Part shown: positions 5,894 to 58,272 of the stretch, in pieces
Layout of the letters: the number at the start of each line of letters is the position of its first letter
How positions within the stretch are numbered: the stretch's first letter is position 1
Source of the DNA: a virus
IMG/VR virus record: IMGVR_UViG_3300020392_000005
Strand: one strand, 5' to 3'
Length of the DNA: 64,000 bases
Notes under the pieces: generated by a model
Told to the model about the DNA's origin: nothing
What the model saw: the letters and a program-made list of their open reading frames with translations, nothing else
Database searches by the model: none
Position numbers and translations under genes: made by a program

Positions 5894-5895
5894 GA

Positions 5896-6090
5896 TTAAT
5901 TCTTTTTAATTTTGTCGCAGGATTCTGTGTTCGCTTTTAATCCTAATTCTTTTGAATATATCCATACATAAGAATATGCTACCGTTTCGTCAATCGTATA
6001 ACATTTCTTACCAAATGATATTCTTGGATCCTTAGGTATAGAACAAGCACTCAATACAAGTCCCATAATTAAAACCATTAAATATTTCAT
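5896..6090 (-). CDS. Small lipoprotein
   Basis: Lipobox LSAC. Confidence 0.7.
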   Translation of the reverse strand: MKYLMVLIMGLVLSACSIPKDPRISFGKKCYTIDETVAYSYVWIYSKELGLKANTESCDKIKKN

Positions 6091-34710: not shown

Positions 34711-35166
34711 TTACACTAATTTAGCGTAAACCTTTGATGAACCGTTAGACAATGTTTCAAACTTAACCTCTAATTTCAAGTTATCAATTCCAGGACCATT
34801 ATCTACTACCACATCTTCAGGTTTAGTTTCAGTTGTTTTACCATATGTACCACCGAATTGTTTTACTTCAGCAGTAACCGTACCAGCGTCACCTTCTAAT
34901 TTAACAGGACTAATATCTAATCCTATTCTCATTAGATTTTCTCTTAATTTGTCAACTGCGTATTGTGGTTTAATGTATTCCATATCGGCTACACTACCTA
35001 CAAAAGCATTAACTCTTTTAAGAACGCTTGGGTCTTTCAAATTTGCTGTTCCTAATGAACCATCTTCAACTGCATTACTTGTAGAAGTACCAGTTGTAGC
35101 GGCACCATATTTGATAGCATTTGATTTCACATTGCCTTCTTTTAAATGTTCTTTAAAAGTTTTCAT
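34711..35166 (-). CDS. Putative virion internal protein
   Basis: N-terminus MKTFKEHLKE, close to the T4 IP capsid-targeting sequence. Confidence 0.7.
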   Translation of the reverse strand: MKTFKEHLKEGNVKSNAIKYGAATTGTSTSNAVEDGSLGTANLKDPSVLKRVNAFVGSVADMEYIKPQYAVDKLRENLMRIGLDISPVKLEGDAGTVTAEVKQFGGTYGKTTETKPEDVVVDNGPGIDNLKLEVKFETLSNGSSKVYAKLV

Positions 35167-35175
35167 TTTTTTCTC

Positions 35176-35385
35176 CTACTTATATTTGTCCGACTTTACT
35201 TTAGAACCATCTGCTCTAGGTATCATACCTTTTGCTTTTAGATGAGCCTTATCTGTAAAGCCTGCCTTACCTGCTTTGTATCGCTTCATAGCGTCAGCAG
35301 TATTAGGCGCTTTCTCATTTACTAAATCTTCTTCAAAGTCTTTCAACTCTTCGTCTTCGTTAAACTTTGTGAACGACTTAACCAT
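35176..35385 (-). CDS. Small putative internal protein
   Basis: MVKSFTKFNE; AHLKAKG.IPRADG module. Confidence 0.65.
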   Translation of the reverse strand: MVKSFTKFNEDEELKDFEEDLVNEKAPNTADAMKRYKAGKAGFTDKAHLKAKGMIPRADGSKVKSDKYK

Positions 35386-36163: not shown

Positions 36164-36189
36164 AAAAAGGGGACCACAAAGGATCCCCT
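36164..36189 (-). terminator. Rho-independent terminator
   Basis: AGGGGA..CC / GG.CCCC stem plus T run on the minus strand. Confidence 0.7.
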
Positions 36190-36215: not shown

Positions 36216-36710
36216 TTAAGCGTCTGCAAATTCTGTATCGTCACCTTGGTCACCTGCGATAGATGACATAGCAACTAGTACTTCTGTCTGCACTCTTCCA
36301 CTTCTTCCACCAGAACCGGCTACTCTTCGTACCCAACCAGCGTGTGCTGTTTTTGTAGTACCAACACCTTGTTCAGTAGTGTCAACACCGAATACTTTTG
36401 TCGGGTCTCCTTGAGTACCAGATGAATTGGCACTTTCAGAAGTTGTTACCGATTTAGGTTTTTCGGATAAAGTGTATGCTGTAGCACTTCCTACTGCTGT
36501 TAATGTTGCACCAGGTACACCAGCAACAACCGTTGCTGAAGTATCACTAGCAATAGCAGTAATTAAGTAATCTTCGCTTGCAACTCTAATATAGTCTCCA
36601 ACAGCTGCTTGTGTTGTTAAAGCAGTTGAAGAACCAGTAACCGCACCAGCAGAGCTGATTGCTACCGTTCCTGAAGCTGTTTTAGAGTCCTTGTTTCCCC
36701 ACGCACTCAT
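36216..36710 (-). CDS. Putative virion structural protein (Ala/Thr/Gly-rich)
   Basis: MS.WG..D...HAGWV...GRSGRV..E.LVA motif; own late promoter and terminator. Confidence 0.75.
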   Translation of the reverse strand: MSAWGNKDSKTASGTVAISSAGAVTGSSTALTTQAAVGDYIRVASEDYLITAIASDTSATVVAGVPGATLTAVGSATAYTLSEKPKSVTTSESANSSGTQGDPTKVFGVDTTEQGVGTTKTAHAGWVRRVAGSGGRSGRVQTEVLVAMSSIAGDQGDDTEFADA

Positions 36711-36770: not shown

Positions 36771-36778
36771 TATTTATA
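36771..36778 (-). promoter_or_regulatory. T4-type late promoter
   Basis: TATAAATA. Confidence 0.85.
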
Positions 36779-36779
36779 A

Positions 36780-37364
36780 CTATTTGAAACCTAGTTTTTT
36801 GAGTTGGGATATAGTGTTGGAAGTAGAGGTGTGTAGTATTCCGATACCGCCTCTTGCTTTGAATTGTGATATGTTCTTTGAATAGTCGTCAATCAGTATA
36901 GTAGGCATACCTCCTACTTTAGCAAAGTTTTGTTTCTCTCTTCTTTTTACTAGATTAACTTTTGCACCAGACATACCTAATCTTGTTCTAGCCCATTTAC
37001 TTTTGCCAGGTATACAATTAGGGTCAGTAGTTTGTTCTACGAAAGCAGATAATATGTGTGGGTCATACTTATTAATAAATGACCATAGTCTTTGACCACC
37101 TGGATTCCAAGGTAGATTACTCCAGAAGTTAGGAGTATTCATAATTGGTTTCCACTTATCTCTTATTGTCTTAAATTTTGTTCTAGGTTCTTTTGCCCAT
37201 TGGGACATAGGCATACCAACTGCTCTTTCTGCAGCCTGTTCAAAATTACACAGGACTCCGTCCATATCACAATAAATTCTAGGTAGTTTTTTGTCAACGA
37301 GAGAATACTCGTTTAGGTTTTTTACCTGATAGATAACATCTTGTCTTAATTCTTTAAACTTCAT
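36780..37364 (-). CDS. HAD-superfamily phosphatase (5'(3')-nucleotidase-like)
   Basis: IYCDMDGVL, ILS, GK..W, LIDD motifs; start moved to MKFKEL. Confidence 0.88.
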   Translation of the reverse strand: MKFKELRQDVIYQVKNLNEYSLVDKKLPRIYCDMDGVLCNFEQAAERAVGMPMSQWAKEPRTKFKTIRDKWKPIMNTPNFWSNLPWNPGGQRLWSFINKYDPHILSAFVEQTTDPNCIPGKSKWARTRLGMSGAKVNLVKRREKQNFAKVGGMPTILIDDYSKNISQFKARGGIGILHTSTSNTISQLKKLGFK

Positions 37365-37390
37365 AGTGTTTCCTTGTCTCATTATGCTTT

Positions 37391-37432
37391 ATTATTACAC
37401 ATTTTCTAGCAAAAGTCAAGCAAAAAATGAGC
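37391..37432 (-). promoter_or_regulatory. Sigma70-type promoter with GCTC upstream box
   Basis: GCTCATTTTTTGCTTGACT...TAATAAT. Confidence 0.7.
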
Positions 37433-37438
37433 AATTTT

Positions 37439-37744
37439 TTACACTTGATAGTCTATTTTAGGGTTTACTTCTACCTTATCTGACTTTGTTTTGTTATCTG
37501 TTAATTTCTTTTCAGGTGCCTTTGATTTAATGTCTAAAGGGTCTTTCTCTACTGCATTTTTAGGTAGAACCGTATCACCAGAATGGTCTTCTTTCTTTGC
37601 TCTTAATTTTGCAAGGTCAGAACCATCTATTTTACCGTTCTTGTTAACATCTAATTTCTTTTGTTTAGGTGTTAACTTTTCATTTACTTTAGAGATTGCG
37701 TCTTCTAACGAACCTGGTTTAATATCTAAATATCTTTTTCCCAT
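37439..37744 (-). CDS. Small putative internal protein with EF-hand-like loop
   Basis: KQKKLDVNKNGKIDG.D..KLR module. Confidence 0.7.
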   Translation of the reverse strand: MGKRYLDIKPGSLEDAISKVNEKLTPKQKKLDVNKNGKIDGSDLAKLRAKKEDHSGDTVLPKNAVEKDPLDIKSKAPEKKLTDNKTKSDKVEVNPKIDYQV

Positions 37745-39903
37745 TATTTACTTCCTCTAACTTTCTTTGCTAAATCTTTATCTGCACCGCCCCAAGTACC
37801 ACTTGATTTGGTTACAAAAGAGTTTACTCTAGCAAGTGCCCATTGTTGTTGTGTAGCACCTGGTCTATGACCACCTTTCCACGCAGCCATTCCTCTATCA
37901 TAAACTTTCTTTAAAATAGAATACGGCATACCTGTCTTATCAGCTTTGTTTCTTACTGCTTTAATACTTTCATAAGTCATTTTAGCAGGATGATTTTTGT
38001 TTTCTACTTTCATTTTTTTCTTTACCATATTAGTTGCGGTACCGTATCTTACATCATCGCCTTTTTCTTTACCATATCTATCTCTAAATGATTTCTTTGG
38101 TAAGTCATCAGCAACTTTGTGTACCATTTTTATTTGTTTTTTAGATAGGTCAGCTTCAGTTTTAAGTGCCTTCTCTAAATCTTTTGCTTGTTTAGTATGT
38201 GCCTTAACTGCACCTTTCAATTGTTTGATAACATCTTTTACAGCAGGTTTATCTTTACTATCTAAATCTTCTTTCTTCATTTCTTTGTCTCTTAATAATT
38301 TGTTTGCGAGACCTATTGATAATGGTACCTCACCTGTATCTGGATTAGGTTCAGGTTTTACAGCTTTATTCTTTTCTATTTCTAATTTCTGTTTAAGTAA
38401 TGCGACTTGGTCTTTTAGAGCAGCGATACTCTCTTTAGATTTATCTTCTTTCTCTTTAGACTTATCTTCGTCTTTACCTTTTAACATATCTTTTAATTTC
38501 ATTTTTTCCTCTGGTTCTTGTTCTTGTTCAAACATACTACCAAATATTCTAGCGTATGGGTCTCTTGCATATAAGTGACCGCCGTGTGTATCAAATCTAG
38601 TTTTTAACTTATTCATAAAGTCTTTGTTGGTTACATTACCTCTTGCACCTTTGGCAGGAGCATTAACACCAGCAGGTTTAAATAAGTCACCTGTATTCTT
38701 ATCTATGAAAGCGTGTATACTTCTCTTCTGTCCGTTTTCTGTATCGTGTATCTTAATGTATTTAGGACCTACCGTTTTCATTAAATCTCTTTTTTGTTTT
38801 GCATAAAGACCTTTGAAACTAGGATGATTTTTAATCTTGTCTTGTCCTATCTTAATGTAATCATCAACGCCTTTCATTACGGCAGCGTTTTCTGCTACAT
38901 ATTCTTCTTTCTGCATAACTCTTACATCATCGCCAAACTTTGCGACAACTTGTTTGTGTATGTTCTCTATATCTTTTGCACTATCAACTCTTACTTCTGA
39001 ACCAGAAGCTGATAGTTCACCACCACCAATCTTACCTTTAAACATATTGGCAACTTGTTTTGCTTGTGATGAGTTCTTACACATATATTCAATGTATTCT
39101 GCATATTCTTTTAATTCGTTTTCTTCTCTAATTCTTACATAAAATCTATTGTTAAATGGTGATTGATAACCGTCTGCTTTAGCACCTTTGTTTGATTGCA
39201 TATAAGCACTAGCGGCATTTCTTGCCATTGTCATATTAGGATAAACCTTATCTAAAACTTTTGTACCATTTCTTAATTTCATAGTCTCTTCTTTAGTAGG
39301 TTTCATACCTTGTTTTTTTAATCTGTCTATGTCTGCTTCTGACGGAGCGTTCTCATTAGTTTCTGTATTATTATCTTTATAGTCGTCTGTCTTTTTCTTT
39401 TGAATACCTTTAGCGCCGTGGTCACTAGTATGTGTTTCTGTAATCTCTTCCCAAGATTTATTTTCAAAAGCAGATAACTTAACTCCTTTAGGTACTTGAA
39501 TACCTTTCTGTATCATACGACTAGCAGCCATCGCTGAAAGAAAAGGAATGTCTGCTTTGTAAAGTTTAGGTAGTTGTGAATTTGTAATTTTGTCAAAGAT
39601 GTTTCTTAATTGATTAGCTCTTGCAAGTGAAATTCTTGCACCTTTAAGTCCTGAATATTCTTTTTTAAGTTTCTGTATTTGTGCGTCTGTAAACTCCCAC
39701 AACATACTTTCAGGTAAGTCTTCCTCACCTAGTATTGACTTAACCGTAGACAACGGAAGTTTCATCTTCTTTGCTATCTCTTCAGGTGATGAACCACCTG
39801 CGAACATAGTGGCAATTGTTTTCATCTTACCTTCGTCTAGCTGTATATCGTTTGCCCAGACTTCAGCGATTGCTTCTGCCATTGTCTTTTTGTATCTTGT
39901 CAT
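37744..39903 (-). CDS. Large modular putative internal head (poly)protein
   Basis: Lys-rich modules separated by (L/I/V)xE sites; C-terminal VY.RGMAAW..GHRPGA..QQWA.ARVNSF domain. Confidence 0.7.
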   Translation of the reverse strand: MTRYKKTMAEAIAEVWANDIQLDEGKMKTIATMFAGGSSPEEIAKKMKLPLSTVKSILGEEDLPESMLWEFTDAQIQKLKKEYSGLKGARISLARANQLRNIFDKITNSQLPKLYKADIPFLSAMAASRMIQKGIQVPKGVKLSAFENKSWEEITETHTSDHGAKGIQKKKTDDYKDNNTETNENAPSEADIDRLKKQGMKPTKEETMKLRNGTKVLDKVYPNMTMARNAASAYMQSNKGAKADGYQSPFNNRFYVRIREENELKEYAEYIEYMCKNSSQAKQVANMFKGKIGGGELSASGSEVRVDSAKDIENIHKQVVAKFGDDVRVMQKEEYVAENAAVMKGVDDYIKIGQDKIKNHPSFKGLYAKQKRDLMKTVGPKYIKIHDTENGQKRSIHAFIDKNTGDLFKPAGVNAPAKGARGNVTNKDFMNKLKTRFDTHGGHLYARDPYARIFGSMFEQEQEPEEKMKLKDMLKGKDEDKSKEKEDKSKESIAALKDQVALLKQKLEIEKNKAVKPEPNPDTGEVPLSIGLANKLLRDKEMKKEDLDSKDKPAVKDVIKQLKGAVKAHTKQAKDLEKALKTEADLSKKQIKMVHKVADDLPKKSFRDRYGKEKGDDVRYGTATNMVKKKMKVENKNHPAKMTYESIKAVRNKADKTGMPYSILKKVYDRGMAAWKGGHRPGATQQQWALARVNSFVTKSSGTWGGADKDLAKKVRGSK

Positions 39904-40199
39904 TTTTTTTCCTCGTATTCTTTAATGTCTATTATTAATCTACCTTCACCTTTGTGTAATCTATGATACACCATTTTAGGTATATAATACTCACTACCTA
40001 CTTTTAACTCTTCAGGCAACTGATTATCCATTTGAAGTTTCCAATTAACACCAGAGACAATCTTAATCTTTCTATCTAACTTGTCTCTATGCCAAATTAG
40101 TTCTTTGTCTTCAATGTCATTATTGAAAACTCTCTGGTGTATACCATTTGTTTTAAAATCAGTATACGGTTTACCAAAAGAAGTTTCCACCATTGCCAA
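39900..40199 (-). CDS. Cupin-like small protein
   Basis: EL.WHRD..DR, W..Q.DN.LP, HRL.KG motif. Confidence 0.7.
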   Translation of the reverse strand: MAMVETSFGKPYTDFKTNGIHQRVFNNDIEDKELIWHRDKLDRKIKIVSGVNWKLQMDNQLPEELKVGSEYYIPKMVYHRLHKGEGRLIIDIKEYEEKK

Positions 40200-40707
40200 G
40201 TCCTAAACTCTTTGCATATCTAGGCAAATTACAAGCCCAATATGACGCCTTTGTTTTATCCTTTTGACTAGCACATCTATGTCTAGCTGCAAAGGACTTT
40301 CTAGCTTTGGGGTCGTTTAGTTTCACTTTCAATCCTGTTGTATCTCCCCAAGTCACCTTCTTAATCTTATCGCCGTCTTTGACGAATACATAAAACTTTT
40401 TAGGTCCACCTCTTTTAGGTTTGTTCAAAGGAGGATTCTTTTCCTCTTCTGCAATCGGTATATCTAAAGGCACATTTTGCTCTTCGTATATACCAAACTC
40501 ACCTATATCAGTTGATAGTAATTCTCTATCCCAAGCACTATCTACTTCTAATAGACCTTCATTATACATATCTCTTGCCTCTCTAAACAAGGCATAAAAT
40601 TCTTCACTATGAATACGATAGATGTTATTCGCTAGAGGTATGTTATTCTCTATGTGATAATGCAACGACTTCGTTATCTTTTCTGCGTAATCACTAAATC
40701 TTAACAT
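40171..40707 (-). CDS. Putative internal protein with basic C-terminal domain
   Basis: MLRFSDYAE; LNKPKRGG.KKFYV.V, ARKSFAARH.C, YWAC. Confidence 0.7.
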   Translation of the reverse strand: MLRFSDYAEKITKSLHYHIENNIPLANNIYRIHSEEFYALFREARDMYNEGLLEVDSAWDRELLSTDIGEFGIYEEQNVPLDIPIAEEEKNPPLNKPKRGGPKKFYVFVKDGDKIKKVTWGDTTGLKVKLNDPKARKSFAARHRCASQKDKTKASYWACNLPRYAKSLGLGNGGNFFW

Positions 40708-43636
40708 ACTCTTTAAACGATTGCACTTTCAACCGTTCCTCCATCTTTTTCACAGCTTCGTCAATCTCTTTTTGATACTCTTCGCCGTATCGTTTCTTAT
40801 ATTTATCAATAGTCTCACTTGAAGCAGCCCACTCTTTTATATCTTCTGTGGTAATCTTCTCTGGTGCTTGTTCAGCACGCTTTTTAGTGTCTACTGATTT
40901 CTCATTTGGCGTCTGTCCAGGCGTGATTTCTTTAGTATGATTGGCATAATCAGCACCTATTTCGTATGCTTCTTTGCCGTACATCTGGTTAAATTTCTTT
41001 GTGTGTTTAGATGTTTTAGTCTTTGCACCTTTATCACCTGGGGCAGCTTTGTAATCACTATCTTTGTCTGATTTACTATACTTCTGTTTAGAGAAATGAC
41101 TTGCTCTCTTTTCTTTTTCACCTTTTTTCAAATCTTTATAGTATTTTTTAGGTTGTGTTCCGTCTTTCTTTTTGACATCTTTATCTTGTGGTAACTTCTT
41201 ACCATATGCTTCTTTTAGTTTCATATCTATTTCTTTCTCGGACATAGCTTCAAAACCATAATCTACATTTAAATCGTGTTCGTGTATTCTAACTTCATCT
41301 ACTTGTGGTGTAGGAATACAATCCCATATCCAACATTTGTGTAAGTTAGAATTGTTATCTTCTAATACAATGTAATTTGTTCCTCTTCTTACTACTTTAC
41401 CAGAAACATCTTGTTTTTGGTCTTCAACTATATCGTCTTGTTTAAATAATTGTTCTCTTATGTAAAGGTCTCTTACCTGCCATTGAGTAAAGTTTTCAAT
41501 AGAAGATATAGGTTTCATAGTACCTAATCCGTGAGATTGCATATTCGCTTGTAAGTTCATACCTTTTCTAACTAGACCAAACAACTTCTGTTTGTCTCTA
41601 AATGAAGTAGGTAATCCTCTTTGAAAAGATTTAAAATCATCTTTTGCGGCTGCGTCTCTCATCTTACTTGCACTCATACCTGTTGCACCTTCAGCGTCTG
41701 GGTCTCTTTCGCCAGCACTTACAACATTAATTTTATCGTACTCGTAATCAGTACCTCTTGCCTTTACGCCGTTATATCTGTTTAGTAGTGTTTCAAATTC
41801 TCTTACTCTATCTGAACCAACTACCATTGTTATTTCGTTTGCTTTACCATTTAGTTTATTGATAACTTCAATCGCTGTTCTAGCGCCAGGTATTTGTTTT
41901 ATCTTACTAGCATATCTAGGAAACATTGATTTCATAATTCTAATTTTGTCATCAACTTTTAATGGATTCTTTTTACTATCAAAAGAACCACTAGGTACTA
42001 TAATAAAATCATTTGCACCTACACTCGCAACTTTATTAATAAGTTTTTCGTGTCCTATTGTTGGTGGATTAAATCTACCAAAGGTAAATGCAATATGTTT
42101 TTTAGGTGTACCTGTTGCTTCTTTTAAACTATCTATTTCTCTATCTGTTATATTACCATCATCTAAAATATCTTTACACTTCTTATAGAATTTTAAGTAA
42201 TGGTATTTCTCTAACATTTTATAGATAACATTTTTAGGAAGTTTGTGTTTCTTACCAAACTCTCTAATTTCTTCTGGCGACATATCACTTTGAAATGCAG
42301 CTTGTCTGTCTTGTATAACTTGGTCGCCTGTATCAATGATAGATTGTATACTATCTTCAATCTCATCTAATTTATTTCTTATCATAGATTGTAGATTGTC
42401 AACATCATCATTTGATAATCCTCTTAATTCTTTGTAATCAATTATATCTCTTACTAGTTCGCCTTTGACAACATCTAACTCCATAACTTTCTTACCGAAG
42501 TCGTCCATATATTTGTCTTTGTCAAACTCTTCTTTCTCTGGTCTTCTGACAAACTTATTATTCTCTACATCAAATACGCCATCTGCCATACTATCATTTT
42601 TCTCTTTGACAGCAGGGTCTACTATTACAAAATAATTGATTGGGTGTTTAGTACCTGGTACTAGTTTACCATTTACATCTTTTAAGTTCTTTCTTAATGC
42701 CTCTAACGCAGCTTCTCTTTCTTCTTCTTTGACATCAAACAATATATTAATATCTAAATCTGCGTCTTCTCTATATCTCTTTGTTAAGATAGAACCGATT
42801 AATGAATACTTTTTGATTGGGTGATATTGTGCAAATTGTTTTAGTTGTGCGTCTATCATATCTTTCACAACTTTTTTTAATTTAGGATTGTTTGTTTCTG
42901 CGTCATCAAATACGCCAGGTGCATATCTCTTTCTAGGAATATCTATAATACTTTCCTGAATATTAACCATATTGATTAATTTTTTAGCAATCTTAACACT
43001 TTCCTCGTGGTCAGAAGGATAATGCCAACCTGCAATAACTCTTCCATAACCACACTCGTCAGCAAGTTCAATAAGATTATCTTTATGTTTAGGATATAAT
43101 TTACCATAGTATTCTGCAAGTAATCTACTTTGCAAACTATGACCTGATGGATACGCAGGAGTTTTCATAGTATCAGAAATTAATTCCATACTATCAAACT
43201 TTAAATTCATTGCGTCTGCAAGTTCATATGGTCTAGGTCTTTGAAATTTATTCTTGTAATATCTAACAACACCACTACCTGCTTTTTTAATCTCGCTTAT
43301 ATCACTATCTTTGTATTCTAAATTGTTTTCATCTAGGTATTTTTTTATACCATAAAAAGTTTCTTGGTCGTGGTTCTCTACACTTTTTTCTATATCACTA
43401 TTTCTACTCTTAAATAGTTCTATCATAGTGTTCATTTCATCTTTAGTTTCAGGACTATCGTTCTCTGGTGGCGTCTCTACATCAATATCTTTCCAGTTAC
43501 CATCTATATTCTGTACAGGTTTAGGTTCTACTTTAGGGTGTGTCAAATCATTTAGGTCTTCGTCAACCATCTTCTTTCTTTTAAGAAGTTCTTTCACATA
43601 GTTTCTATAATATGCGTTTTGAAAATTATCTGGCAT
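40694..43636 (-). CDS. Multidomain protein: PAP2 phosphatase + Pol-beta-type nucleotidyltransferase + HIGH-type (cytidylyl/adenylyl)transferase + basic tail
   Basis: K..F.RPRP / YPSGH / R...G.HYPSD; IGS...DADLD; FGRFNPPTIGH, VVGSDR, SAG.RDPD, MSASKMR. Confidence 0.88.
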   Translation of the reverse strand: MPDNFQNAYYRNYVKELLKRKKMVDEDLNDLTHPKVEPKPVQNIDGNWKDIDVETPPENDSPETKDEMNTMIELFKSRNSDIEKSVENHDQETFYGIKKYLDENNLEYKDSDISEIKKAGSGVVRYYKNKFQRPRPYELADAMNLKFDSMELISDTMKTPAYPSGHSLQSRLLAEYYGKLYPKHKDNLIELADECGYGRVIAGWHYPSDHEESVKIAKKLINMVNIQESIIDIPRKRYAPGVFDDAETNNPKLKKVVKDMIDAQLKQFAQYHPIKKYSLIGSILTKRYREDADLDINILFDVKEEEREAALEALRKNLKDVNGKLVPGTKHPINYFVIVDPAVKEKNDSMADGVFDVENNKFVRRPEKEEFDKDKYMDDFGKKVMELDVVKGELVRDIIDYKELRGLSNDDVDNLQSMIRNKLDEIEDSIQSIIDTGDQVIQDRQAAFQSDMSPEEIREFGKKHKLPKNVIYKMLEKYHYLKFYKKCKDILDDGNITDREIDSLKEATGTPKKHIAFTFGRFNPPTIGHEKLINKVASVGANDFIIVPSGSFDSKKNPLKVDDKIRIMKSMFPRYASKIKQIPGARTAIEVINKLNGKANEITMVVGSDRVREFETLLNRYNGVKARGTDYEYDKINVVSAGERDPDAEGATGMSASKMRDAAAKDDFKSFQRGLPTSFRDKQKLFGLVRKGMNLQANMQSHGLGTMKPISSIENFTQWQVRDLYIREQLFKQDDIVEDQKQDVSGKVVRRGTNYIVLEDNNSNLHKCWIWDCIPTPQVDEVRIHEHDLNVDYGFEAMSEKEIDMKLKEAYGKKLPQDKDVKKKDGTQPKKYYKDLKKGEKEKRASHFSKQKYSKSDKDSDYKAAPGDKGAKTKTSKHTKKFNQMYGKEAYEIGADYANHTKEITPGQTPNEKSVDTKKRAEQAPEKITTEDIKEWAASSETIDKYKKRYGEEYQKEIDEAVKKMEERLKVQSFKEYVKI

Positions 43637-44303
43637 TGCTTCTCTTTAATTGTAGTTCTTTTTCTATCCACTTTTTCGCTACATAATTTTGTACAGGAAC
43701 ACTAATTAATCTCCTTACTTGTTTAAATACTTTTAATAGTTCATCTTCTTTTGCGTCATTGTTATCAACGACTATCATATTTCTCATACCAAACATATTT
43801 TGAAATCTACCGATATTATTTTGTACGGTTTGCCAACTCTTTCTAGTAATATCTTCTGGCACGCTTCTAGTTCTAATTCTATTTCTTTGTAATGCAACTT
43901 CTAAACTAGTGTTTACAAATATCATATAAGTGTCATAACCTAACATCTGTAGCATACTTCTTTGTTTATTAATTACATTATAATCTCTACCTGTTGCGTC
44001 TATAACTAAACCTAGTCTACCTCTAATGTATCTGTCCATCTGGTCGCCTGTAATCTGTTTTGCTCTTTGTCTCAATGGGTCTCTAGCACTTGCTTCATTA
44101 TCAGGCATTTTCAATGATAGACCTGCTTTCTTTAGATACATTTCAAATCTTGTATCAGAATTAACCATCTTTAAACCTAATCCTAAAGTTGTTCTATTGG
44201 TTACATAAGTCTTACCAGAACCAGGACCACCTGCAAGAAAAAATGCTTTGAATATTCCTGGGTCGTAAACACCTTCTTGTATTATAGATTTAAATTGTTT
44301 CAT
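43626..44303 (-). CDS. P-loop kinase (Zeta toxin/PNK-like)
   Basis: GGPGSGKT, VID.T, AL.RN..R.R.VP. Confidence 0.85.
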   Translation of the reverse strand: MKQFKSIIQEGVYDPGIFKAFFLAGGPGSGKTYVTNRTTLGLGLKMVNSDTRFEMYLKKAGLSLKMPDNEASARDPLRQRAKQITGDQMDRYIRGRLGLVIDATGRDYNVINKQRSMLQMLGYDTYMIFVNTSLEVALQRNRIRTRSVPEDITRKSWQTVQNNIGRFQNMFGMRNMIVVDNNDAKEDELLKVFKQVRRLISVPVQNYVAKKWIEKELQLKRSNAR

Positions 44304-44590
44304 ACTTTATATAGAGTATACTTTAAAGTTATCTCTTCTCCTTTTTTAATATCTTTTAATGTTTGCACATAAAACTTACCATCAACTTCTATCTTCTGTA
44401 CATTTGGTTTATCACTATGATTTATGAAACCACCTAGTGGCGTTCTATATAATTCTCTTCCATAGTTCAACCAACCTATACCCAAGTCTGTCCACTTGTC
44501 AATCTTCTTTGTTGCGAAAACTCCGTAACCTTCTATGGGCGATAACTTTAGTGTCAAATTATCAGGCAAAGGTCTATACTTATCTGTCAT
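44300..44590 (-). CDS. Minimal SET-domain protein (lysine methyltransferase fold)
   Basis: GYGVFA, FINHS..PN, DI..GEEIT..Y. Confidence 0.9.
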   Translation of the reverse strand: MTDKYRPLPDNLTLKLSPIEGYGVFATKKIDKWTDLGIGWLNYGRELYRTPLGGFINHSDKPNVQKIEVDGKFYVQTLKDIKKGEEITLKYTLYKV

Positions 44591-44894
44591 CTCCGCTACC
44601 GTGTATCTTGTCCTCTTCTAATCGTTTCTGTAATTTAAATATATTAGATTGTGCTACATCATCTAATCGTATATCTAAATCGTTTGCTAATGCACTAACA
44701 TACCATAGTACATCACCTAATTCTTTTTTAATATCTTCTTTTGAGAAAGTGTTACCGTCTCTCATATTCTTTTTAATTTTATCTGCAACTTCGCCAACTT
44801 CTGAACAAAGTCCTATCATAGGATAAGTTATCTTATCTTTTGCAGGATAAACTGCTGATGATATACTTAATGCTTGATAATCATTAAAGTTCAT
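44580..44894 (-). CDS. mazG: MazG-like nucleotide pyrophosphohydrolase
   Basis: GL.SEVGEV..K.KK, ELGDVLWY, N..KL..R. Confidence 0.92.
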   Translation of the reverse strand: MNFNDYQALSISSAVYPAKDKITYPMIGLCSEVGEVADKIKKNMRDGNTFSKEDIKKELGDVLWYVSALANDLDIRLDDVAQSNIFKLQKRLEEDKIHGSGDDR

Positions 44895-45468
44895 TTTGTA
44901 TCTCCTTTATAATATCTTTCGCAATATCACCAGGCTCTTTTCCTTGTGCCTTAATACTAACAAAGCCTGGTTGTCTTTTGAAGTAATCAATCGCTGGACC
45001 TGTTTCTTTTTTATACAAGGCAATTCTATCAGATATAATATCTGGTTTATCATCGGCTCTTCCTCTCTTTGTCAATCTTCTAATTACTTCTTCTTTATCC
45101 ACATCTAAAAATACAACAACATCATAACCTATGCCAAACTTTTCCATATCTCTAACTTGTTGCATATATCTAGGATAACCATCTAGTACATAACCTTTTG
45201 TTGCACTTGCAACTTCTTTTCTAATAAGTTTTAAAACTATATCGTTAGGTGCAAACTTACCTTGGTCTAATAAATTCTTAATCTTCTGACCATCAGGACC
45301 ACCTTTGTCAATTTCTTTTCTCAATAAACCACCTGGGTATATGTGTTTGATACCAAAGTGTCTAATGATGTATTCAGAATAGGTTGACTTACCTGAACCA
45401 GGACCACCCATAATGACTACACGAACCATCTTGGCTTCTTTTAAAAAATTAACAAATGTCTGTACCAT
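44884..45468 (-). CDS. adk: Adenylate kinase (short type)
   Basis: GGPGSGKST, G.LLR, LDGYPR...Q, R.R.DD. Confidence 0.92.
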   Translation of the reverse strand: MVQTFVNFLKEAKMVRVVIMGGPGSGKSTYSEYIIRHFGIKHIYPGGLLRKEIDKGGPDGQKIKNLLDQGKFAPNDIVLKLIRKEVASATKGYVLDGYPRYMQQVRDMEKFGIGYDVVVFLDVDKEEVIRRLTKRGRADDKPDIISDRIALYKKETGPAIDYFKRQPGFVSIKAQGKEPGDIAKDIIKEIQNEL

Positions 45469-45502
45469 TCTTTCTCCTGTTTCTGTTTCTAAAAAAATCT
45501 TT

Positions 45503-45634
45503 CTATCCTATTAAATACATTATTAAAATACCGATTGCTAATCCTTCTAACCACGCCAGATATACTGACTTCAAAGGATGCTCGTGTATGAAATTAAACT
45601 TCCAGTCTAATATTTCTTTTATAAATTTTTTCAT
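45503..45634 (-). CDS. Small membrane protein (43 aa)
   Basis: Manual ORF MKKFIKEILDW...AWLEGLAIGILIMYLIG. Confidence 0.6.
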   Translation of the reverse strand: MKKFIKEILDWKFNFIHEHPLKSVYLAWLEGLAIGILIMYLIG

Positions 45635-46851
45635 TATCCTTTTACCCAATCTTTTGCGATAGTAAAGTTTGCTCTACTAAACTCTAATCTATCTACTAGT
45701 TTGACTACATTACCTATCTTATCTGTAGCAACAAATCCTTCAGGTGCGGTAACTCTATAACCACTATCAGTTCTAATAAAGTGACCAACACTTTGTATCT
45801 GTGCTAACTTCTGCAATATTGTATTCTTCGCTGTTTGCAAAGTCATATATGTTGCGATAGAAAAATATAGTGCTTGTTTGTTTCTATCAATAAATTTTAA
45901 ATTGTTATCTTTTGCATTTATATATTTCTCTTTACCTCTAGCAGTTTTCTTACTATCTATTTCTGCTTGTATAAAGTTCTCATAGTAATCTCTAAATCTA
46001 TCTTGTAATGTTCTAACACTACCCATACCACCTTTACTATCTCTAATGACAGAATTGAAAAATGTCTTTAGTCTGAAACCAACTGACAACTGGTCATTAC
46101 TATCAAATAGATTTAACAAAGGTCCTGCCTTCTGTAAACTACCTTCTGCCATTCTTAATTGTGCATTAAACTTAGCAACTTCTGCTCTACTCATTGTTGC
46201 ACTACCACTAGTATCTTTGTATTGTGCCGATGGTACGAATACACTAGCAGAATTGATACCTCTTACATAACCGAAACTTGCATTTAAACTATCCATTGCA
46301 TTACCATTATATTGAGTATGAAATACAATACCTAGTCTTGCTCTTGCAACTTTTCTACCAGCGCTACTATCAACTGGTAAAGCATATGTAATTGTGTTAG
46401 GTGTAAAAGAAATCATAGATTGACCATCTATGTTTACTACTTTCTTTTCTTCACTAGTAAATAATAAATCGCCTTGTAAGATACCTCTTATACCTAACTT
46501 TTTTAATTCTCTTAAACAGACTTGAAGTTTAGACGCAACAGGACCACTATGGTTTCTGTTTATGTCTGAAACGGTATAATTGATTTTGGGAGTTCTATTG
46601 AATACAGATTTTGTTCCAACAAAGAATTTGTTGTTTTCAGGATTGATACCACAAACTATGGCAGGTGCACCGTCCCATTTAACGGTTACATTTACTTTCT
46701 TGCTTGAGTTACCTACAAGCATTTTTTGTAAAGACTTTAAAAATGCAATCGCATTTCTACCACCTTTAGCGCCGTCATTTATAATACTATCTTCTAAATG
46801 CTCTAGGTGTGTGTTCGTACCTGAGCTTGAATATCCTTTAAAACTAAACAT
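45634..46851 (-). CDS. Conserved large-phage protein (DUF6267-like) with ATP-dependent ligase/capping-type motifs
   Basis: N.HLEHLED; KWDG (motif I), LQGD (III), EGFV (IV), VKLV (V). Confidence 0.7.
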   Translation of the reverse strand: MFSFKGYSSSGTNTHLEHLEDSIINDGAKGGRNAIAFLKSLQKMLVGNSSKKVNVTVKWDGAPAIVCGINPENNKFFVGTKSVFNRTPKINYTVSDINRNHSGPVASKLQVCLRELKKLGIRGILQGDLLFTSEEKKVVNIDGQSMISFTPNTITYALPVDSSAGRKVARARLGIVFHTQYNGNAMDSLNASFGYVRGINSASVFVPSAQYKDTSGSATMSRAEVAKFNAQLRMAEGSLQKAGPLLNLFDSNDQLSVGFRLKTFFNSVIRDSKGGMGSVRTLQDRFRDYYENFIQAEIDSKKTARGKEKYINAKDNNLKFIDRNKQALYFSIATYMTLQTAKNTILQKLAQIQSVGHFIRTDSGYRVTAPEGFVATDKIGNVVKLVDRLEFSRANFTIAKDWVKG

Positions 46852-46918: not shown

Positions 46919-46926
46919 TATTTATA
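46919..46926 (-). promoter_or_regulatory. T4-type late promoter heading the enzyme/internal-protein block
   Basis: TATAAATA inside an imperfect palindrome GTCTTATAAATATAAGAGAC. Confidence 0.85.
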
Positions 46927-46929
46927 AGA

Positions 46930-48348
46930 CTATGACACTTTTACAAAGAAACTAGATAAATCAGTATTACTAGCCGCATATCTGATAATATCAGTAGCGA
47001 TAGCGTTTCTTTGTGCTCCTGTGCCTGACATAAAAGTGTCTAAAAATTGTAGACACATATTCTTTGAGAAGATAAAACCACCTTTGAGTTCTAAACATTT
47101 TGCAATAAATGTCTTTACATCAACAGGATTCTTTGCATATTTTTTATATAAAACATACATATCGTTTAACTTCACTTGATTACTAGGTGTCTCTCGCCAA
47201 CCTTGACCTTTGAGACCACCACCTATACTTCTTCTCATATGTTTCTCACAATAGAAGTTTAGGTTACCACCACCAATCTTACCACCGGCAGCAGCCACAC
47301 CTTTTATTTCACCTTGCCAACTTGAAGTAGAATTAAATGCTCTGAATTGTACCTCACCTGTACCTATCTTAAAGTACATATCAACACTTGAAAAGAAATC
47401 ATTGTTTCTTCCAAAAGTAAAACCTTTAAAGGTATGTGTTATTTCTTTTGTTCTAGTAGGTTCGTTAAACTCTTTTAGAGAAACCGTATTGCCTAGTTTC
47501 TTTAATGAGATTCCTAAAAGAAATGTTTTAGGACTTCCTATACGACCTGCTTTATCTAATACTGCCTGATTAATTACAGACCAATCTTTTGTAAATTCTT
47601 TTAATGGGTCACTTGCAGGTGACATTGTTGTCATCCATATATCACCTGGATTCCATTTATCATCTGAAAACGAACCTGGTGCCTGTGGCATTTTACCATC
47701 TTTTTGTGCTTGTGCTTTATCCATTCTTGCAACTTCTTTTTTAGCACGATATACTTTACTCATAAAATTACTACCTCTATGAAAGTATACTGCACCTTGC
47801 ACTTTGTTTTTATATTTTCTGTATACTGCGTTTGCACTCTTAATAAATGTATCAGATTGTAACCAATCTTCAGGACATCTATCTTTAAATGCTTTGTATG
47901 CTACGGTTGCCTGTACATACTTTGCGGCCTTCTCCATATTCTTATCTGTAATATCAGAAGAAGTTATAGGTCCTCTCTTAACATTAAAGGCAAGTGAACA
48001 ATAATAACATTGACCACTCTCGGTTACTGCGGTTACAGCCGCACCACCACCAGAACCACCACCTCCTCCGAAGAGTGGCGATTTATATATCTTCGTAATA
48101 GGAACAACTTCTGTTTTGTTTCCTGTATCTGATTTACAAACGATTGAGAAAGGATAGGTATTAGGTTTACCTTCTATTGATATACCTGTAAGTTTACGAC
48201 CTGAAGAAGTCTTACCTTCTACAAATCGTTCTTTATTCTTAATCATAAGTTCGCATATGGCAAATCTAGTCTTGCCTGCGTACTTACCATTCTTTGAGAC
48301 ATATGCTTTGCCGTCTCTAATGAAATCGTTTTTTCCTAATGTTGCCAT
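46930..48348 (-). CDS. Putative restriction-endonuclease-fold protein
   Basis: T..TES, DKWNPGDIW...GISLKK (PD-(D/E)XK variant). Confidence 0.6.
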   Translation of the reverse strand: MATLGKNDFIRDGKAYVSKNGKYAGKTRFAICELMIKNKERFVEGKTSSGRKLTGISIEGKPNTYPFSIVCKSDTGNKTEVVPITKIYKSPLFGGGGGSGGGAAVTAVTESGQCYYCSLAFNVKRGPITSSDITDKNMEKAAKYVQATVAYKAFKDRCPEDWLQSDTFIKSANAVYRKYKNKVQGAVYFHRGSNFMSKVYRAKKEVARMDKAQAQKDGKMPQAPGSFSDDKWNPGDIWMTTMSPASDPLKEFTKDWSVINQAVLDKAGRIGSPKTFLLGISLKKLGNTVSLKEFNEPTRTKEITHTFKGFTFGRNNDFFSSVDMYFKIGTGEVQFRAFNSTSSWQGEIKGVAAAGGKIGGGNLNFYCEKHMRRSIGGGLKGQGWRETPSNQVKLNDMYVLYKKYAKNPVDVKTFIAKCLELKGGFIFSKNMCLQFLDTFMSGTGAQRNAIATDIIRYAASNTDLSSFFVKVS

Positions 48349-48406: not shown

Positions 48407-48483
48407 TGGCGACCTTGGCAGGACTTGAACCTGCAACATCTAGTTTAGAAGACTAGTGCTCTATCCAGTTGAGCTACAAGGCC
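48407..48483 (-). tRNA. tRNA-Arg (anticodon UCU), CCA encoded
   Basis: GGCCTTG/CAAGGTC acceptor stem, D arm AGCTCAACTGGATAGAGC, CTAGT-CTTCTAA-ACTAG, GGTTCAAGTCC. Confidence 0.97.
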
Positions 48484-48758: not shown

Positions 48759-50123
48759 TTAAACTTTGAAATCAGAAAACTTATCGTATGGGTCAGTTTC
48801 AATCTCTTTCTCCTGATTGGCGTCTACAATGTTTTGTGCTTTTTGCTCTACATCATACAATCTCATCTTACTTCTATCAACGCCGATTATAAAAGAACGA
48901 TTGATTGCTGGGTCGCTATATCTGTTTTTAAGTTGTTTAACTTTCATCTGATTAAGACTATCTAGTTCTTCACTAGTCATTAATGCAAACATAAAATCAG
49001 CAGTAGCAGGTAGACCAAAACTTTCTGAAGTATCTTCTAATCCAATATCAGTAGATACAAAACCACTTCTTGTGGTTTGAGTTGCCGTGAATATAGGTAA
49101 TTTAAATTCAACAGCAAGACCTCGTAATTCTTCTGCGATTGCTTTTATATAGAAATAAGATGATATATTACCACCTTTAAATCTACTAGAGGCACATATA
49201 TTCAAATAGTCAATAAACAATACATCAGGTTTAAAACTCTTCTTTAATGCAAGTTCATTTAACAATGCTTTGAAATGTCCACTATGAGCAGAAGCAGTAG
49301 GATATTCTTTAATGATTAATTTACCAGGCGACTTACTTTTTAATCTTTCAACTCTATCATCAAACATTGTTTTAGGTAGAGCGTGTAAATCATCTGTACT
49401 AACATCTAATAGGTTAGCGTCTATTCTTTCTGCAATTCTTTCCTCAGCCATTTCTAGGGTTACATACAATACATTTTTACCTTCAAGTATACTAGAGGCG
49501 GCGAGGTGACACATAAACAAAGATTTACCAACACCTGTACCTGCAAGACAAACATTTAAAGTCTTCTGCGGAACACCGCCTTTAGTTATCTTATTGAAAT
49601 ATTGTAAGTCAAATGGTAATCTTAATTCAGTTCTATGGTACCAATCAAATCTATCATCTGCGTCATCAATGTAATCGTGCCCAATATGATTATCAAAAGA
49701 CACAGCAAGAGCTTCAGATAAAATTGAAGGAATGGCCTCCGGAGTTCTTTTCTTGTCTTTTCCATCCAAGATTTTAATGCCGTTAAGTACTGCATTGTTT
49801 ACCGCCTTGTCTTTACAGAATTTCTCCGTAGTATCAAACAACCATTGTAATTCGTTCTCTTCGTAAGAAAGTCCGTTTATAGTTTGTTTAATTGCCTTAT
49901 ACTCTTCCTCGGTAATATCTTTTCTATTTCCTAATTCTATAATCAAGGTTTCTTTTGTAGGAAGATTATTATATTTATCTACAAACTGATATATTTGGTC
50001 AAACAAAATTTTATCTGTACGATTAGCAAAGTAATCATCTTTTAGAAAAGGCAAAACTTTTCTACAATAATCTTCATTAAAAATTAAGTTTGTTAGTATT
50101 GTGTCTTCTATTCTATTTGTCAT
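48759..50123 (-). CDS. gp41: Replicative helicase gp41
   Basis: AGTGVGKS, TLEMAEE, IDYLNIC, SESFGLPATAD, KNRY. Confidence 0.97.
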   Translation of the reverse strand: MTNRIEDTILTNLIFNEDYCRKVLPFLKDDYFANRTDKILFDQIYQFVDKYNNLPTKETLIIELGNRKDITEEEYKAIKQTINGLSYEENELQWLFDTTEKFCKDKAVNNAVLNGIKILDGKDKKRTPEAIPSILSEALAVSFDNHIGHDYIDDADDRFDWYHRTELRLPFDLQYFNKITKGGVPQKTLNVCLAGTGVGKSLFMCHLAASSILEGKNVLYVTLEMAEERIAERIDANLLDVSTDDLHALPKTMFDDRVERLKSKSPGKLIIKEYPTASAHSGHFKALLNELALKKSFKPDVLFIDYLNICASSRFKGGNISSYFYIKAIAEELRGLAVEFKLPIFTATQTTRSGFVSTDIGLEDTSESFGLPATADFMFALMTSEELDSLNQMKVKQLKNRYSDPAINRSFIIGVDRSKMRLYDVEQKAQNIVDANQEKEIETDPYDKFSDFKV

Positions 50124-50436
50124 CAAGGATTGTACCATTCTTTATTCTTTCATCTAATATTTCAACTAATATATCACCAATATACTTTATAAATGCAGGT
50201 TGGTCAATATCCAAGTCCAGTTCTTCTGGTTTTCTCAATAGAGTCCATTGAAACTGCAAAGGAAGATTGCCGTCAGATTGTTCTTCATTACCAAACTGCA
50301 CCTTGCCGTATTTGTAGATTACATCTTTGTACTTGCCTTCAACGATTTTTATACTACTAAAATCGTCTCCGTCTCTTTGTACATAGACATATCTCTTATT
50401 CGCCGTAGAGGAATTTTCTTTTTGCTTGTTCATCAA
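50113..50436 (-). CDS. Hypothetical protein in the gp40 position (between uvsX and gp41)
   Basis: G.Y...IY.YG.V...L.F motif; synteny. Confidence 0.7.
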
Positions 50437-56784: not shown

Positions 56785-58272
56785 TTATTTTTTCTTTTTG
56801 TCAATAGGTGGTAACCTTTTACTTAATACAAAAGTCCTGTTAGGATTAACAGACGCATTGAACATACGGATAACTTCTCTATTAAGTAATACATCGGACC
56901 TCGCCCTAGGTCTTTGGTCTAGTCCAAATTCTATATCTTTATATGTGAAACCATTAAAGGTTAAATCTAATAGTACGGTAGTTCTTACTTCTGATGGTTC
57001 GTCTCCTTCTGCGTTTGCTCTAAACACTCTGGACTCCCCGTACTTCGGTGCCGAATATTTTTTGCCATTGTAGTTCCAAGTTACCGTTTTACCATTTACT
57101 TTGATATCTTCGGCGTGCATTGAACAAGCGTGAGCACCGTTACCTGTATCCATCTTCGCTCTAATCTTACCTATGTCACCAACTTCAATAGTCTCTAACC
57201 AACCTACCTCTTGTAGTGATTGTCTATCCCAGTTGTCTCTATCTATGACATACTTAACAAAATTCTTAACAAGTTGCTTACCTGATATTGCACCCCCAGG
57301 TGTAGGTCCTTGTAAATCTTTATATAGATAACCTTCGTAATCTGCACCAGTACCTGGCGAACCATTTACTTCTAATAGATAATGTTTACCATCGTGGATT
57401 ATATGGTCAACTCCTACTAGGTATGCTTTACTTACTCTACTTGCTTTTAATACTAATTCAATCTCTTCTTCACTTAACTTATAAGGTTTCGCTTCTGCAC
57501 CTCTATGAGTATTAGTTCTAAAGTCAAATGATGATTGTATTCTTTTTGTACTTGCAAATATCTTATTGTCTACCACGAAAGTTCTTACATCAAACTTAAC
57601 AGGCATAAATTCTTGTATCAACAATTCAGCACCGTGTTTCCATAATGCCTGAATAGTAGATACTAGGGATTCATAACTATCTAATTTTACAACACCAATA
57701 CCTTGCGTTCCTGTTAGAGTTTTTAAGACAACAGGAAACTTATTACCTATTAGTTTCATTGCGTCATCTATATTCTTCTCGTTAGAAACGAAAGCAGTTC
57801 TAGGTGTAGGTATACCAAACTTCTCAAATAATAGAGCAGTTGTCAATTTGTTATTACAAGTTAACATAGCGTTTCTAGTATTACACATAAACGCACCTGA
57901 ATTTTGAAAGGCAGATATAATTGATAATCCACTTTCATCTTCTACTGCACCTGCTCTGGTAACACAAACGGTATCTTTACCTATAAATGTATGTTCAGTA
58001 TCTTTACCATCATAGTTATAGATTGTTAGAGTATTCTTCTCTTCGTCTTTACCTGTAATGATAGCGTGTCTAGTTTCAATAACTACACACTTGATATTTA
58101 ATTCTTCGCAAGTATCGTTAATAAGTTTTACGGTAAGTTCTTTGTCTTCTTTACCACCGACTTTTCTCTTTTTTAAATTAGGATTAGTCTTGGTAACAAC
58201 GGCAATCGTAATTGGTTTGCCTTCTCGTTCAACCTTTTCTGTTATGAAATCTTTAAACTTTGGTACTTGCAT
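56785..58272 (-). CDS. rimK: RimK-family ATP-grasp ligase fused to a RimK-associated (retropepsin-like) protease
   Basis: NK..T, K...GTQG.GV, QEF, D.R, FRTN, GVD, LEVN.SPG; C-terminal AKMDTGN. Confidence 0.88.
   Translation of the reverse strand: MQVPKFKDFITEKVEREGKPITIAVVTKTNPNLKKRKVGGKEDKELTVKLINDTCEELNIKCVVIETRHAIITGKDEEKNTLTIYNYDGKDTEHTFIGKDTVCVTRAGAVEDESGLSIISAFQNSGAFMCNTRNAMLTCNNKLTTALLFEKFGIPTPRTAFVSNEKNIDDAMKLIGNKFPVVLKTLTGTQGIGVVKLDSYESLVSTIQALWKHGAELLIQEFMPVKFDVRTFVVDNKIFASTKRIQSSFDFRTNTHRGAEAKPYKLSEEEIELVLKASRVSKAYLVGVDHIIHDGKHYLLEVNGSPGTGADYEGYLYKDLQGPTPGGAISGKQLVKNFVKYVIDRDNWDRQSLQEVGWLETIEVGDIGKIRAKMDTGNGAHACSMHAEDIKVNGKTVTWNYNGKKYSAPKYGESRVFRANAEGDEPSEVRTTVLLDLTFNGFTYKDIEFGLDQRPRARSDVLLNREVIRMFNASVNPNRTFVLSKRLPPIDKKKK

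Follow-up and report, generated by a model that had tools for sequence, protein, structure and literature searches.

The IMG/VR virus record IMGVR_UViG_3300020392_000005, analysed here as one strand of 64,000 nucleotides (the window), carries between positions 36,780 and 46,851 an operon built around a 405-amino-acid (aa) protein of the Pfam family DUF6267, which is predicted to be a very divergent enzyme of the ligase fold. Together with its neighbors, this protein may form a putative module for the healing and sealing of nucleic-acid ends, made late in infection and in part packaged in the phage head, a reading to which roughly even chances are given. A bolder form of this proposal, in which the heads are pre-loaded with a working repair kit that is delivered as virion cargo, is rather doubtful. 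Equally tentative is the composition suggested for such a kit, namely the hidden ligase, an NMNAT-like adenylyltransferase, a kinase similar to polynucleotide kinase (PNK), a Pol-beta nucleotidyltransferase (NTase), phosphatases, and adenylate kinase (Adk), which would reach the head by means of T4-type leader peptides and a prohead protease.

The AlphaFold2 model of the DUF6267 protein, computed from a 105-sequence alignment, has a predicted local distance difference test score (pLDDT) of 92.4 and a predicted template modelling score of 0.89, and shows the fold of a nucleotidyltransferase domain. This outcome, together with the Foldseek comparison, agrees with a first-pass annotation of the same DNA, which had proposed a ligase-like protein at this position. 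In the model, KWDG is found where strand 54-58 ends and a hairpin follows, and conserved candidates for the other motifs come next, in order and on strands (Q126-G127-D128; F149/P151-N152-T153, as putative motif IIIa; E371-G372; K384). A helical insert of ~130 residues (about residues 220-350) separates motifs IIIa and IV, and motif V is followed by ~20 residues with one short helix and no OB domain. The absence of an OB domain at this place is what RNA ligases show, in contrast to DNA ligases and capping enzymes, and all known ATP-dependent DNA ligases possess an OB domain. Foldseek returned only weak rows (E > 0.04), among which capping enzymes and ligases are enriched, with human and other capping enzymes in the best rows at a probability of 0.3-0.6. 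In structure comparison, RNA ligases rank over DNA ligases by 1-2 Z units. The ligase fold of DUF6267 is very probably real and catalytic.

The four motifs on which the first-pass annotation had relied are present in the order I, III, IV and V of covalent nucleotidyltransferases: KWDG at residues 58-61 (window 46669-46680), LQGD at 125-128 (46468-46479), EGFV at 371-374 (45730-45741), and VKLV at 383-386 (45694-45705). Their key residues are conserved in an alignment of 105 representatives that are 34-47% identical to the query, where K58, D60, G372 and K384 never vary and conservation reaches at least 90% at G61, Q126, G127, D128, E371, D387 and R388. The description of the protein as unrecognized has to be revised, as its family already has a name (Pfam DUF6267, E 1.9e-122; phrog_455), and what is new is its ligase fold. 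A search of 1.8 billion cluster representatives, one per 50%-identity cluster, found 2,673 DUF6267-related clusters. A literature search for DUF6267, phrog_455, DUF5824 and DUF7717 turned up no paper, and a search of the ESM Atlas for named look-alikes of DUF6267 returned unnamed viral clusters only.

The company kept by this protein was followed in 80 related viral contigs, in which homologues of the module were located by tblastn and only loci with enough flanking sequence were counted. Table 1 sorts these loci by the identity of their DUF6267 protein.

Table 1. Loci with a homologue of each module component, by identity of the DUF6267 protein
Component	At least 58% (clade A)	48-58%	Below 48% (cyanophage type)
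HIGH NTase domain	14/14	10/10	16/19
Kinase	15/15	3/12	2/23
Pol-beta NTase	14/14	5/10	0/19
HAD	5/5	3/3	1/11
Adk	6/15	2/12	0/23
PAP2	0/14	0/10	1/19
SET	1/14	0/11	1/20

The N-terminal part of the 719-aa protein is found in all eight clade A loci (8/8). Among sequenced phages the two genes are distributed almost identically: DUF6267 is present in 366, 61 and 24 records named Synechococcus, Cyanophage and Prochlorococcus, respectively, and the NTase in 375, 61 and 24. In many clusters DUF6267 adjoins the HIGH NTase or is fused to it, in both orders. Other fusions involve a homologue of the window kinase (P0238, with the kinase at 11-221 and DUF6267 at 235-633), the N-terminal part of the 178-aa protein (P0211), and DUF5824, which is fused to DUF6267-CTP (P0194); in one locus (L061) the genes for DUF6267, kinase and HAD are adjacent. 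From co-occurrence, fusions and the PAP2 insertion described below, it follows that DUF6267 and the HIGH NTase are a universal pair, that kinase, Pol-beta NTase and HAD are a clade-specific healing set, and that the rest are variable passengers. The co-occurrence anticipated by the first-pass annotation is thus borne out nearly everywhere for the HIGH NTase and within the clade of at least 58% identity for kinase, Pol-beta NTase and HAD; PAP2, SET, Adk and MazG are variable. The trio of DUF6267, the NTase and the 472-aa protein encoded upstream can also be split: in S-SCSM1 (L092, NC_070962.1 85637-93179) the 472-aa homologue directly adjoins the NMNAT-like gene, without an intervening DUF6267, and in the related ACG-2014f phages the match to DUF6267 is limited to its N-terminal half, at ~45 kb and thus distant from the NTase gene at ~141 kb.

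The universal partner is, in the window, a domain of the 980-aa protein. Residues 497-900 were modelled with AlphaFold2 at a pLDDT of 75 overall and >90 in the HIGH domain, which is followed by a small beta-barrel in the model. Foldseek places this region about equally close to NadD, PPAT and NadM (E about 1e-6). The motifs TIGH and MSASKMR are intact, and the domain belongs to the cyanophage family phrog_395/3041, being 38-51% identical to cyanophage copies. It is predicted to be an NMNAT/PPAT-type adenylyltransferase, and the NCBIfam equivalog models for NMNAT score 18-21 bits, with cut-offs of 112-341. The usual database label, a TagD-type glycerol-3-phosphate cytidylyltransferase, was rejected, since fold and motifs are closest to the adenylyltransferases NadD, PPAT and NadM.

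The same polypeptide contains, in order, PAP2, an internal remnant of a leader (..VNIQE/SIIDIPR), the Pol-beta NTase with its GS...DxD signature intact (264-324), the HIGH domain, the small beta-barrel and a basic tail. The PAP2 phosphatase is an in-frame insertion (window 42950-43570, about residues 24-227): a 93%-identical protein from a related contig (L003:6210-8555) has the same first 13 residues and then continues as ..VKE/SIIDIPR, with no PAP2. To judge from these sequences, the domain appears to have been gained or lost recently inside a leader peptide. The leader of the relatives, MRFKDFIKE/SIIDIPR, is now internal and located behind PAP2, a site that would fit release of PAP2 by the protease.

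The T4 late-promoter consensus TATAAATA occurs eight times in the window, always on the coding strand, where each copy occupies a short gap directly before a gene start (minus-strand positions 3265, 4317, 6532, 13676, 36151, 36771, 46919 and 61938), and the total count is not above shuffled expectation. After the copy in front of DUF6267, the next one lies at 36771-36778, just past the HAD gene, so that the stretch from 46926 to 36780 reads as one late unit. The eight motifs would provide a usable late-promoter map for this phage. A sigma-70 promoter scan of the operon gave results below shuffled expectation and was not used.

Many proteins of the module and their homologues start with peptides that resemble the capsid-targeting sequence (CTS) of T4, MKTYQEFIAE (PMC8442874), in which positions 4 and 7 serve targeting and positions 8 and 10 processing (PMC9026906). 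These leaders are of the T4-type form MKxFxxFIxE, with a hydrophobic or aromatic residue at 4 and 7, I/L/V at 8 and E at 10. The leader of the window kinase (MKQFKSIIQE) follows these rules, and that of Adk (MVQTFVNFLKE) follows them shifted by one. Relatives of the NTase start with MRFKDFIKE, MKSFLQFISE or MKTYQRFMTE, and relatives of DUF6267 with MKSFKQYLSE and the like, followed by a conserved KNTHLEHLED. In the related loci, a strict version of the pattern is found in 23/62 DUF6267, 19/45 NTase and 5/8 Adk open reading frames (ORFs), compared with 17/634 other same-strand ORFs, 0/221 opposite-strand ORFs, 0/33 gp41 and 0/11 MazG as controls. A gp21-type protease is encoded in relatives. 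Proteomic studies have detected the NMNAT-like protein in the virions of S-SZBM1, S-CREM2 and S-SCSM1 (PMC9146016, PMC10665884, PMC9602691); DUF6267 is not reported in these three proteomes. In S-SZBM1, the protein detected is a leader-bearing NTase (MRFRQFIIE), and the leaderless DUF6267 homologue (MAKNTHLEHLED) is not detected. The S-SCSM1 homologue of the 472-aa protein, gp282, is annotated as a virion protein. CTS-like leaders are also present outside the module, in a 151-aa protein (MKTFKEHLKE), a 69-aa protein (MVKSFTKFNE) and a 495-aa protein (MQVPKFKDFITE), encoded at 34711-35166, 35176-35385 and 56785-58272, respectively (all minus strand).

In the mechanism proposed, K58 would take AMP from ATP and pass it to a 5'-phosphate end, where attack by the 3'-OH would seal the break, with E371 (motif IV) and K384 (motif V) assisting the sealing chemistry and the helical insert acting like the helical substrate-binding domain of RNA ligases of the Rnl1/Rnl2 type. 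The ends would be healed by the other enzymes: in the pelagiphage-like lineage, the kinase would convert 5'-OH to 5'-P, the HAD and PAP2 phosphatases would remove 3'-phosphates, and the Pol-beta NTase would replace lost end nucleotides. The NMNAT/PPAT-like enzyme, in turn, would either make an adenylylated cofactor or adenylylate the 5'-phosphate end. The operon would be transcribed late, with many of the enzymes bearing CTS-like propeptides, and at least some of these would enter the prohead, lose their propeptides to the gp21-type protease and be ejected along with the DNA. Once ejected, they would act ahead of the first phage gene expression, either on damage caused by abortive-infection nucleases, against defenses that deplete NAD or ATP, or on breaks in the incoming DNA. 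The published scheme of phage RNA repair comprises a ligase, a PNK, a HAD phosphatase and a ligase-associated Pol-beta NTase (PMC7824862), and the operon matches it. Healing and sealing is further supported by the kinase-DUF6267 fusion and by the locus in which DUF6267, kinase and HAD are adjacent.

Several observations weigh against this mechanism, beginning with the sequence of the candidate ligase. Pfam reports DUF6267 alone, with no match to PF01068, and NCBIfam reports nothing; searches of the PDB by phmmer and with the 105-sequence profile gave coiled-coil noise and no ligase; and the alignment of DUF6267 compared by hhalign with a 43-sequence alignment of Rnl1 (RNA_lig_T4_1, PF09511) reached a probability of 1.3%. 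With single sequences, hhalign gave E 0.57 for T4 Rnl2 and E 0.098 for T4 Rnl1, the latter from a sole local match that pairs EGFVA..VKL with EGYVA..FKI, motifs IV and V of T4 Rnl1. Motif III of DUF6267 ends in D where E is usual, and a single lysine, not two, is present in motif V. Because no sequence method sees a relationship, the model is best read as that of a new, very divergent family of covalent nucleotidyltransferases, outside Rnl1, Rnl2 and Rnl5. The partners raise difficulties of their own. Most cyanophage loci hold DUF6267 with its NMNAT-like partner and no healing enzymes, which rules out end-healing as the core function of the pair. None of the known sealing pathways involves an NMNAT-like enzyme, and the T4 Pnkp/Rnl1 scheme has no place for one. 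The kinase shares only its P-loop with T4 Pnkp, the HAD phosphatase is encoded by a separate gene without similarity to T4 Pnkp and looks like a mononucleotide 5'(3')-nucleotidase, and for the Pol-beta domain Pfam reports, at E <= 0.01, NTP_transf_2 and Polbeta only, not RlaP. Leaders and virion detection are likewise uneven. The window DUF6267 starts with MFSFKGYSSSG, strictly conserved within its clade down to 65% identity, which keeps the targeting positions 4 and 7 and lacks the processing residues at 8 and 10. Syn1 has no leader on either DUF6267 or the NTase, and packaging would therefore be a frequent but optional feature. Finally, DUF6267 is absent from the virion proteome of S-SZBM1 and apparently from that of S-CREM2, judged for the latter by gene position only.

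Whether the substrate is DNA or RNA can be approached through the other ligases of the carriers. The complete related phages HTVC008M, Syn1 and S-SZBM1 have no match to PF01068, PF09511, PF01653 or RtcB, and PF09414 has none in HTVC008M or Syn1, the two examined for it. DUF6267 is thus the only ligase-fold gene in these three phages, in agreement with the literature, where cyanophages are described as lacking gp30. This situation recalls a 'missing' replicative DNA ligase, which would stand in for gp30 in joining Okazaki fragments and closing recombination nicks, with the neighboring genes as unrelated passengers; such a role is, however, quite unlikely. A gp30-type ligase and DUF6267 occur together in three phages outside the Kyanoviridae, namely Stenotrophomonas phage DLP6, Pseudoalteromonas phage XG4 and Vibrio phage EniLVp02, so that DUF6267 is not simply a substitute for gp30, and the plain replacement reading was demoted on these grounds. 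In addition, DUF6267 lacks an OB domain and RNA ligases outrank DNA ligases by the 1-2 Z units given above, a late promoter and CTS-like leaders would be odd for a replisome enzyme, and the tight fusion to an NMNAT-like enzyme would be left unexplained. Taken with the domain architecture, the better rank of RNA ligases in structure comparison and the fusion to a kinase, the coexistence with gp30 favors an RNA or mixed substrate; RNA is more likely than DNA, and nick sealing on DNA is a less likely role.

The resemblance of the universal partner to NadD, NadM and PPAT and the weak NCBIfam NMNAT matches would suit a module acting on small nucleotides, which rebuilds ATP and NAD pools or destroys or makes signaling nucleotides, a reading judged unlikely. 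In it, DUF6267 would work alongside the NMNAT-like enzyme, Adk, MazG and the phosphatases, using its enzyme-AMP form to make or break dinucleoside polyphosphates or adenylylated cofactors. The presence of Adk and MazG in the operon and the NT5C-like, mononucleotidase character of the HAD protein point the same way, injected enzymes would suit a defense that depletes NAD or ATP early, and ligases make ApnN as side products. An adjustment of host NAD by the virion NMNAT has also been suggested (PMC9602691). However, the enzymes that would round off an NAD route (Nampt, Nudix, PRPP-type or ADP-ribose) are absent, the NMNAT equivalog scores (20 bits vs 112-341) are far below cut-off, Adk and MazG are variable and not core, ligase-superfamily enzymes that act mainly on a small molecule are not known, and both the kinase fusion and the Pol-beta NTase suggest that polymer ends are the target. 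Slightly less probable still is a capping-like or 5'-adenylylating DUF6267 that does not seal and instead marks or protects the ends of phage or host RNA or DNA; the 5'-5' linked group would come from the HIGH NTase or be edited by it. It would account for the obligate pairing that sealing pathways leave unexplained, as both enzyme types make 5'-5' pyrophosphate linkages, the beta-barrel behind the HIGH domain could bind nucleic acid, and capping enzymes are, as seen above, among the best Foldseek rows (0.3-0.6). By far the least probable is a head-core or scaffold-type virion protein with the shape of a ligase and no chemistry. The late promoter, the CTS-like leader in much of the family and the detection of neighbors in virions would be expected of it, but the residues that never vary in the 105 sequences (34-47% identity) coincide exactly with the catalytic motif positions, fusions of DUF6267 to active-looking enzymes recur, and DUF6267 goes undetected in the S-SZBM1 and, apparently, S-CREM2 virion proteomes.

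If the preferred reading, a late-made module for healing and sealing, is compared with known systems, the closest nick-sealing and repair RNA ligases are Naegleria NgrRnl (Rnl5; PDB 5cot, 6vt0), Trypanosoma brucei REL1 (1xdn) and T4 Rnl2 (1s68, 2hvq). In contrast to these, with which it has no detectable sequence relationship, DUF6267 carries its helical domain inside the NTase domain (between IIIa and IV) and not appended at an end, and shows D in motif III, one lysine in motif V and an N-terminal CTS-like leader. T4 Rnl1 and T4 Pnkp repair tRNA cut by an anticodon nuclease, and fungal Trl1 combines ligase and kinase. The DUF6267 module differs in that its kinase and HAD are separate genes limited to one clade, with a likeness to Pnkp at superfamily level, and in its obligate NMNAT-like partner and head-targeting leaders, which have no counterpart there; T4 Rnl1 and Pnkp are not known to be packaged. 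With the phage RNA-repair sets (PMC7824862) it shares the same four enzyme classes in one operon, whereas its ligase belongs to a different, unannotated family, its Pol-beta domain matches the generic NTP_transf_2 and not RlaP, of which it may be a distant relative, and the obligate NMNAT/PPAT-like partner and head-targeting leaders are additional. By analogy, DUF6267 would be an Rnl-type repair ligase in its manner of working, with Pnkp-like helpers, but it fails every named ligase family profile.

Regarding delivery, the leader pattern, late expression and gp21-type protease of relatives recall the T4 internal proteins IPI-III and Alt, which are packaged in the head, processed by gp21 and ejected. 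Here, the putative cargo would be enzymes acting on nucleic acids and nucleotides, in contrast to the small basic proteins and the ADP-ribosyltransferase of T4; not every member of the DUF6267 family has the leader, and the window DUF6267 lacks processing residues. The HIGH domain belongs to the same family as the cyanophage 'cytidylyltransferase / NMNAT-like' virion protein (T4-GC 190; phrog_395/3041), from which the window protein differs by its fusion behind the Pol-beta NTase and PAP2 and by a leader that is now an internal cleavage-type site.

DUF6267 and its NMNAT-like partner are present in essentially every Kyanoviridae genome, and are core genes of the most abundant ocean myoviruses. 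Marine T4-like phages have been described for 15 years as lacking a ligase, a gap that an enzyme of predicted ligase fold makes biochemically testable. The obligate pairing of ligase-type and NMNAT/PPAT-type enzymes is without precedent in known sealing pathways, and may point to a new end chemistry. Should the leaders work as in T4, these would be the first repair enzymes delivered as virion cargo, and the leaders would offer a sequence rule for spotting ejected proteins in uncultured marine phages. The analysis of the window contributes to this picture the extended kinase/Pol-beta/PAP2/HAD operon, the kinase fusion, the coexistence with gp30, and the match between leader and virion detection in S-SZBM1.

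The genes of the window are all on the minus strand, with a GC content of ~34%. A DnaB/gp41-type helicase gene (48759-50138) is located a short way upstream of the module. The neighbors listed in the first-pass annotation (kinase, HAD, PAP2, Pol-beta, HIGH, Adk and MazG) are all real and share this strand. The family name of DUF6267, the SET gene, the DUF7717/DUF5824 protein, the single late unit and the CTS-like leaders come in addition to what had been noted. The features are collected in Table 2.

Table 2. Features of the operon and its upstream flank, in the direction of transcription
Feature	Position	Strand	Remarks
tRNA-Arg(UCU)	48410-48483	-	between gp41 helicase gene and 472-aa gene
472-aa protein	46930-48348	-	phrog_1462; syntenic upstream partner, outside the late promoter of the module
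T4-type late promoter motif TATAAATA	46919-46926	-	68 nt upstream of the DUF6267 start codon
DUF6267 protein, 405 aa	45634-46851	-	leader MFSFKGY
43-aa ORF	45503-45634	-	overlaps DUF6267 stop (TAATG); hydrophobic C-terminal half
Adenylate kinase (Adk)	44884-45468	-	PF00406 E 2.6e-37; 11-residue N-terminal extension MVQTFVNFLKE before P-loop
MazG-type NTP pyrophosphohydrolase	44580-44894	-	PF03819 E 6e-14; no leader
SET-domain protein, 96 aa	44300-44590	-	PF00856 E 4e-12; variable passenger
P-loop kinase, AAA_33/Zeta class	43626-44303	-	PF13671 E 6e-13; PF06414 E 1.4e-9; phrog_505 polynucleotide kinase E 3e-7
980-aa multi-enzyme protein	40694-43636	-	PAP2 124-213; Pol-beta NTase 264-324; HIGH-type CTP_transf_like 518-616
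178-aa protein	40171-40707	-	phrog_7595; N-terminal part fused to DUF6267 in P0211
99-aa ORF	39900-40199	-	TTG start as listed, ATG at 40193; between 178-aa and 719-aa genes
719-aa protein	37744-39903	-	DUF7717 (372-445), DUF5824 (640-702); leader-like start MTRYKKTMAEAIAE
101-aa protein	37439-37744	-	dockerin/EF-hand-like Ca-loop (DVNKNGKIDGSD), weak: PF00404 E 6e-4, below cut-off
HAD-superfamily phosphatase (DMDG), NT5C-like	36780-37382	-	PF06941 E 8.5e-5 (just under Pfam cut-off); phrog_2643 E 6e-28

The source is an uncultured T4-like marine myovirus, probably a pelagiphage, as judged from the following features. The nearest isolate by the 405-aa protein is Pelagibacter phage HTVC008M (Kyanoviridae), with 54% amino-acid identity; no near relative among phage records was returned when the 10-kb module was compared with them by megablast, and the lineage has no close isolate that is sequenced; and, besides the tRNA-Arg, a permuted tmRNA of the alphaproteobacterial type is encoded at window 5645-5943 (minus strand; Rfam RF04321 80.7 bits, RF01849 65.8 bits). 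The tag read by ARAGORN from this tmRNA is GNNTFALAA, and the tmRNA type fits a Pelagibacter-like host.

Some smaller features accompany the operon. The 472-aa protein shows a GD...SLKK pattern, and its closest named clusters in the protein atlas are HpaII/HaeIII restriction endonucleases, at 0.81, which serves as a lead only. The 43-aa ORF, absent from ORF lists made at 50 aa or more, opens with MKKFIKEILD, starts on the final base of the DUF6267 stop codon and ends in a membrane-like stretch. In cyanophage-type loci, MazG is located upstream of DUF6267 instead. A minimal SET gene, similar to lysine methyltransferases, is unusual within a phage operon and recurs in 2/82 related loci. The 99-aa ORF has no Pfam or PHROG match, and a homologue is found in 5/82 related loci. 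Behind the operon lies a gene with its own late promoter (36216-36710, minus strand), whose product starts with MSAWGNKDSK and is similar to the 'virion structural protein' (MSLYG.TDS..) conserved in Syn1, S-SZBM1 and HTVC008M; the gene is followed by a strong terminator hairpin at 36168-36189 on the same strand.

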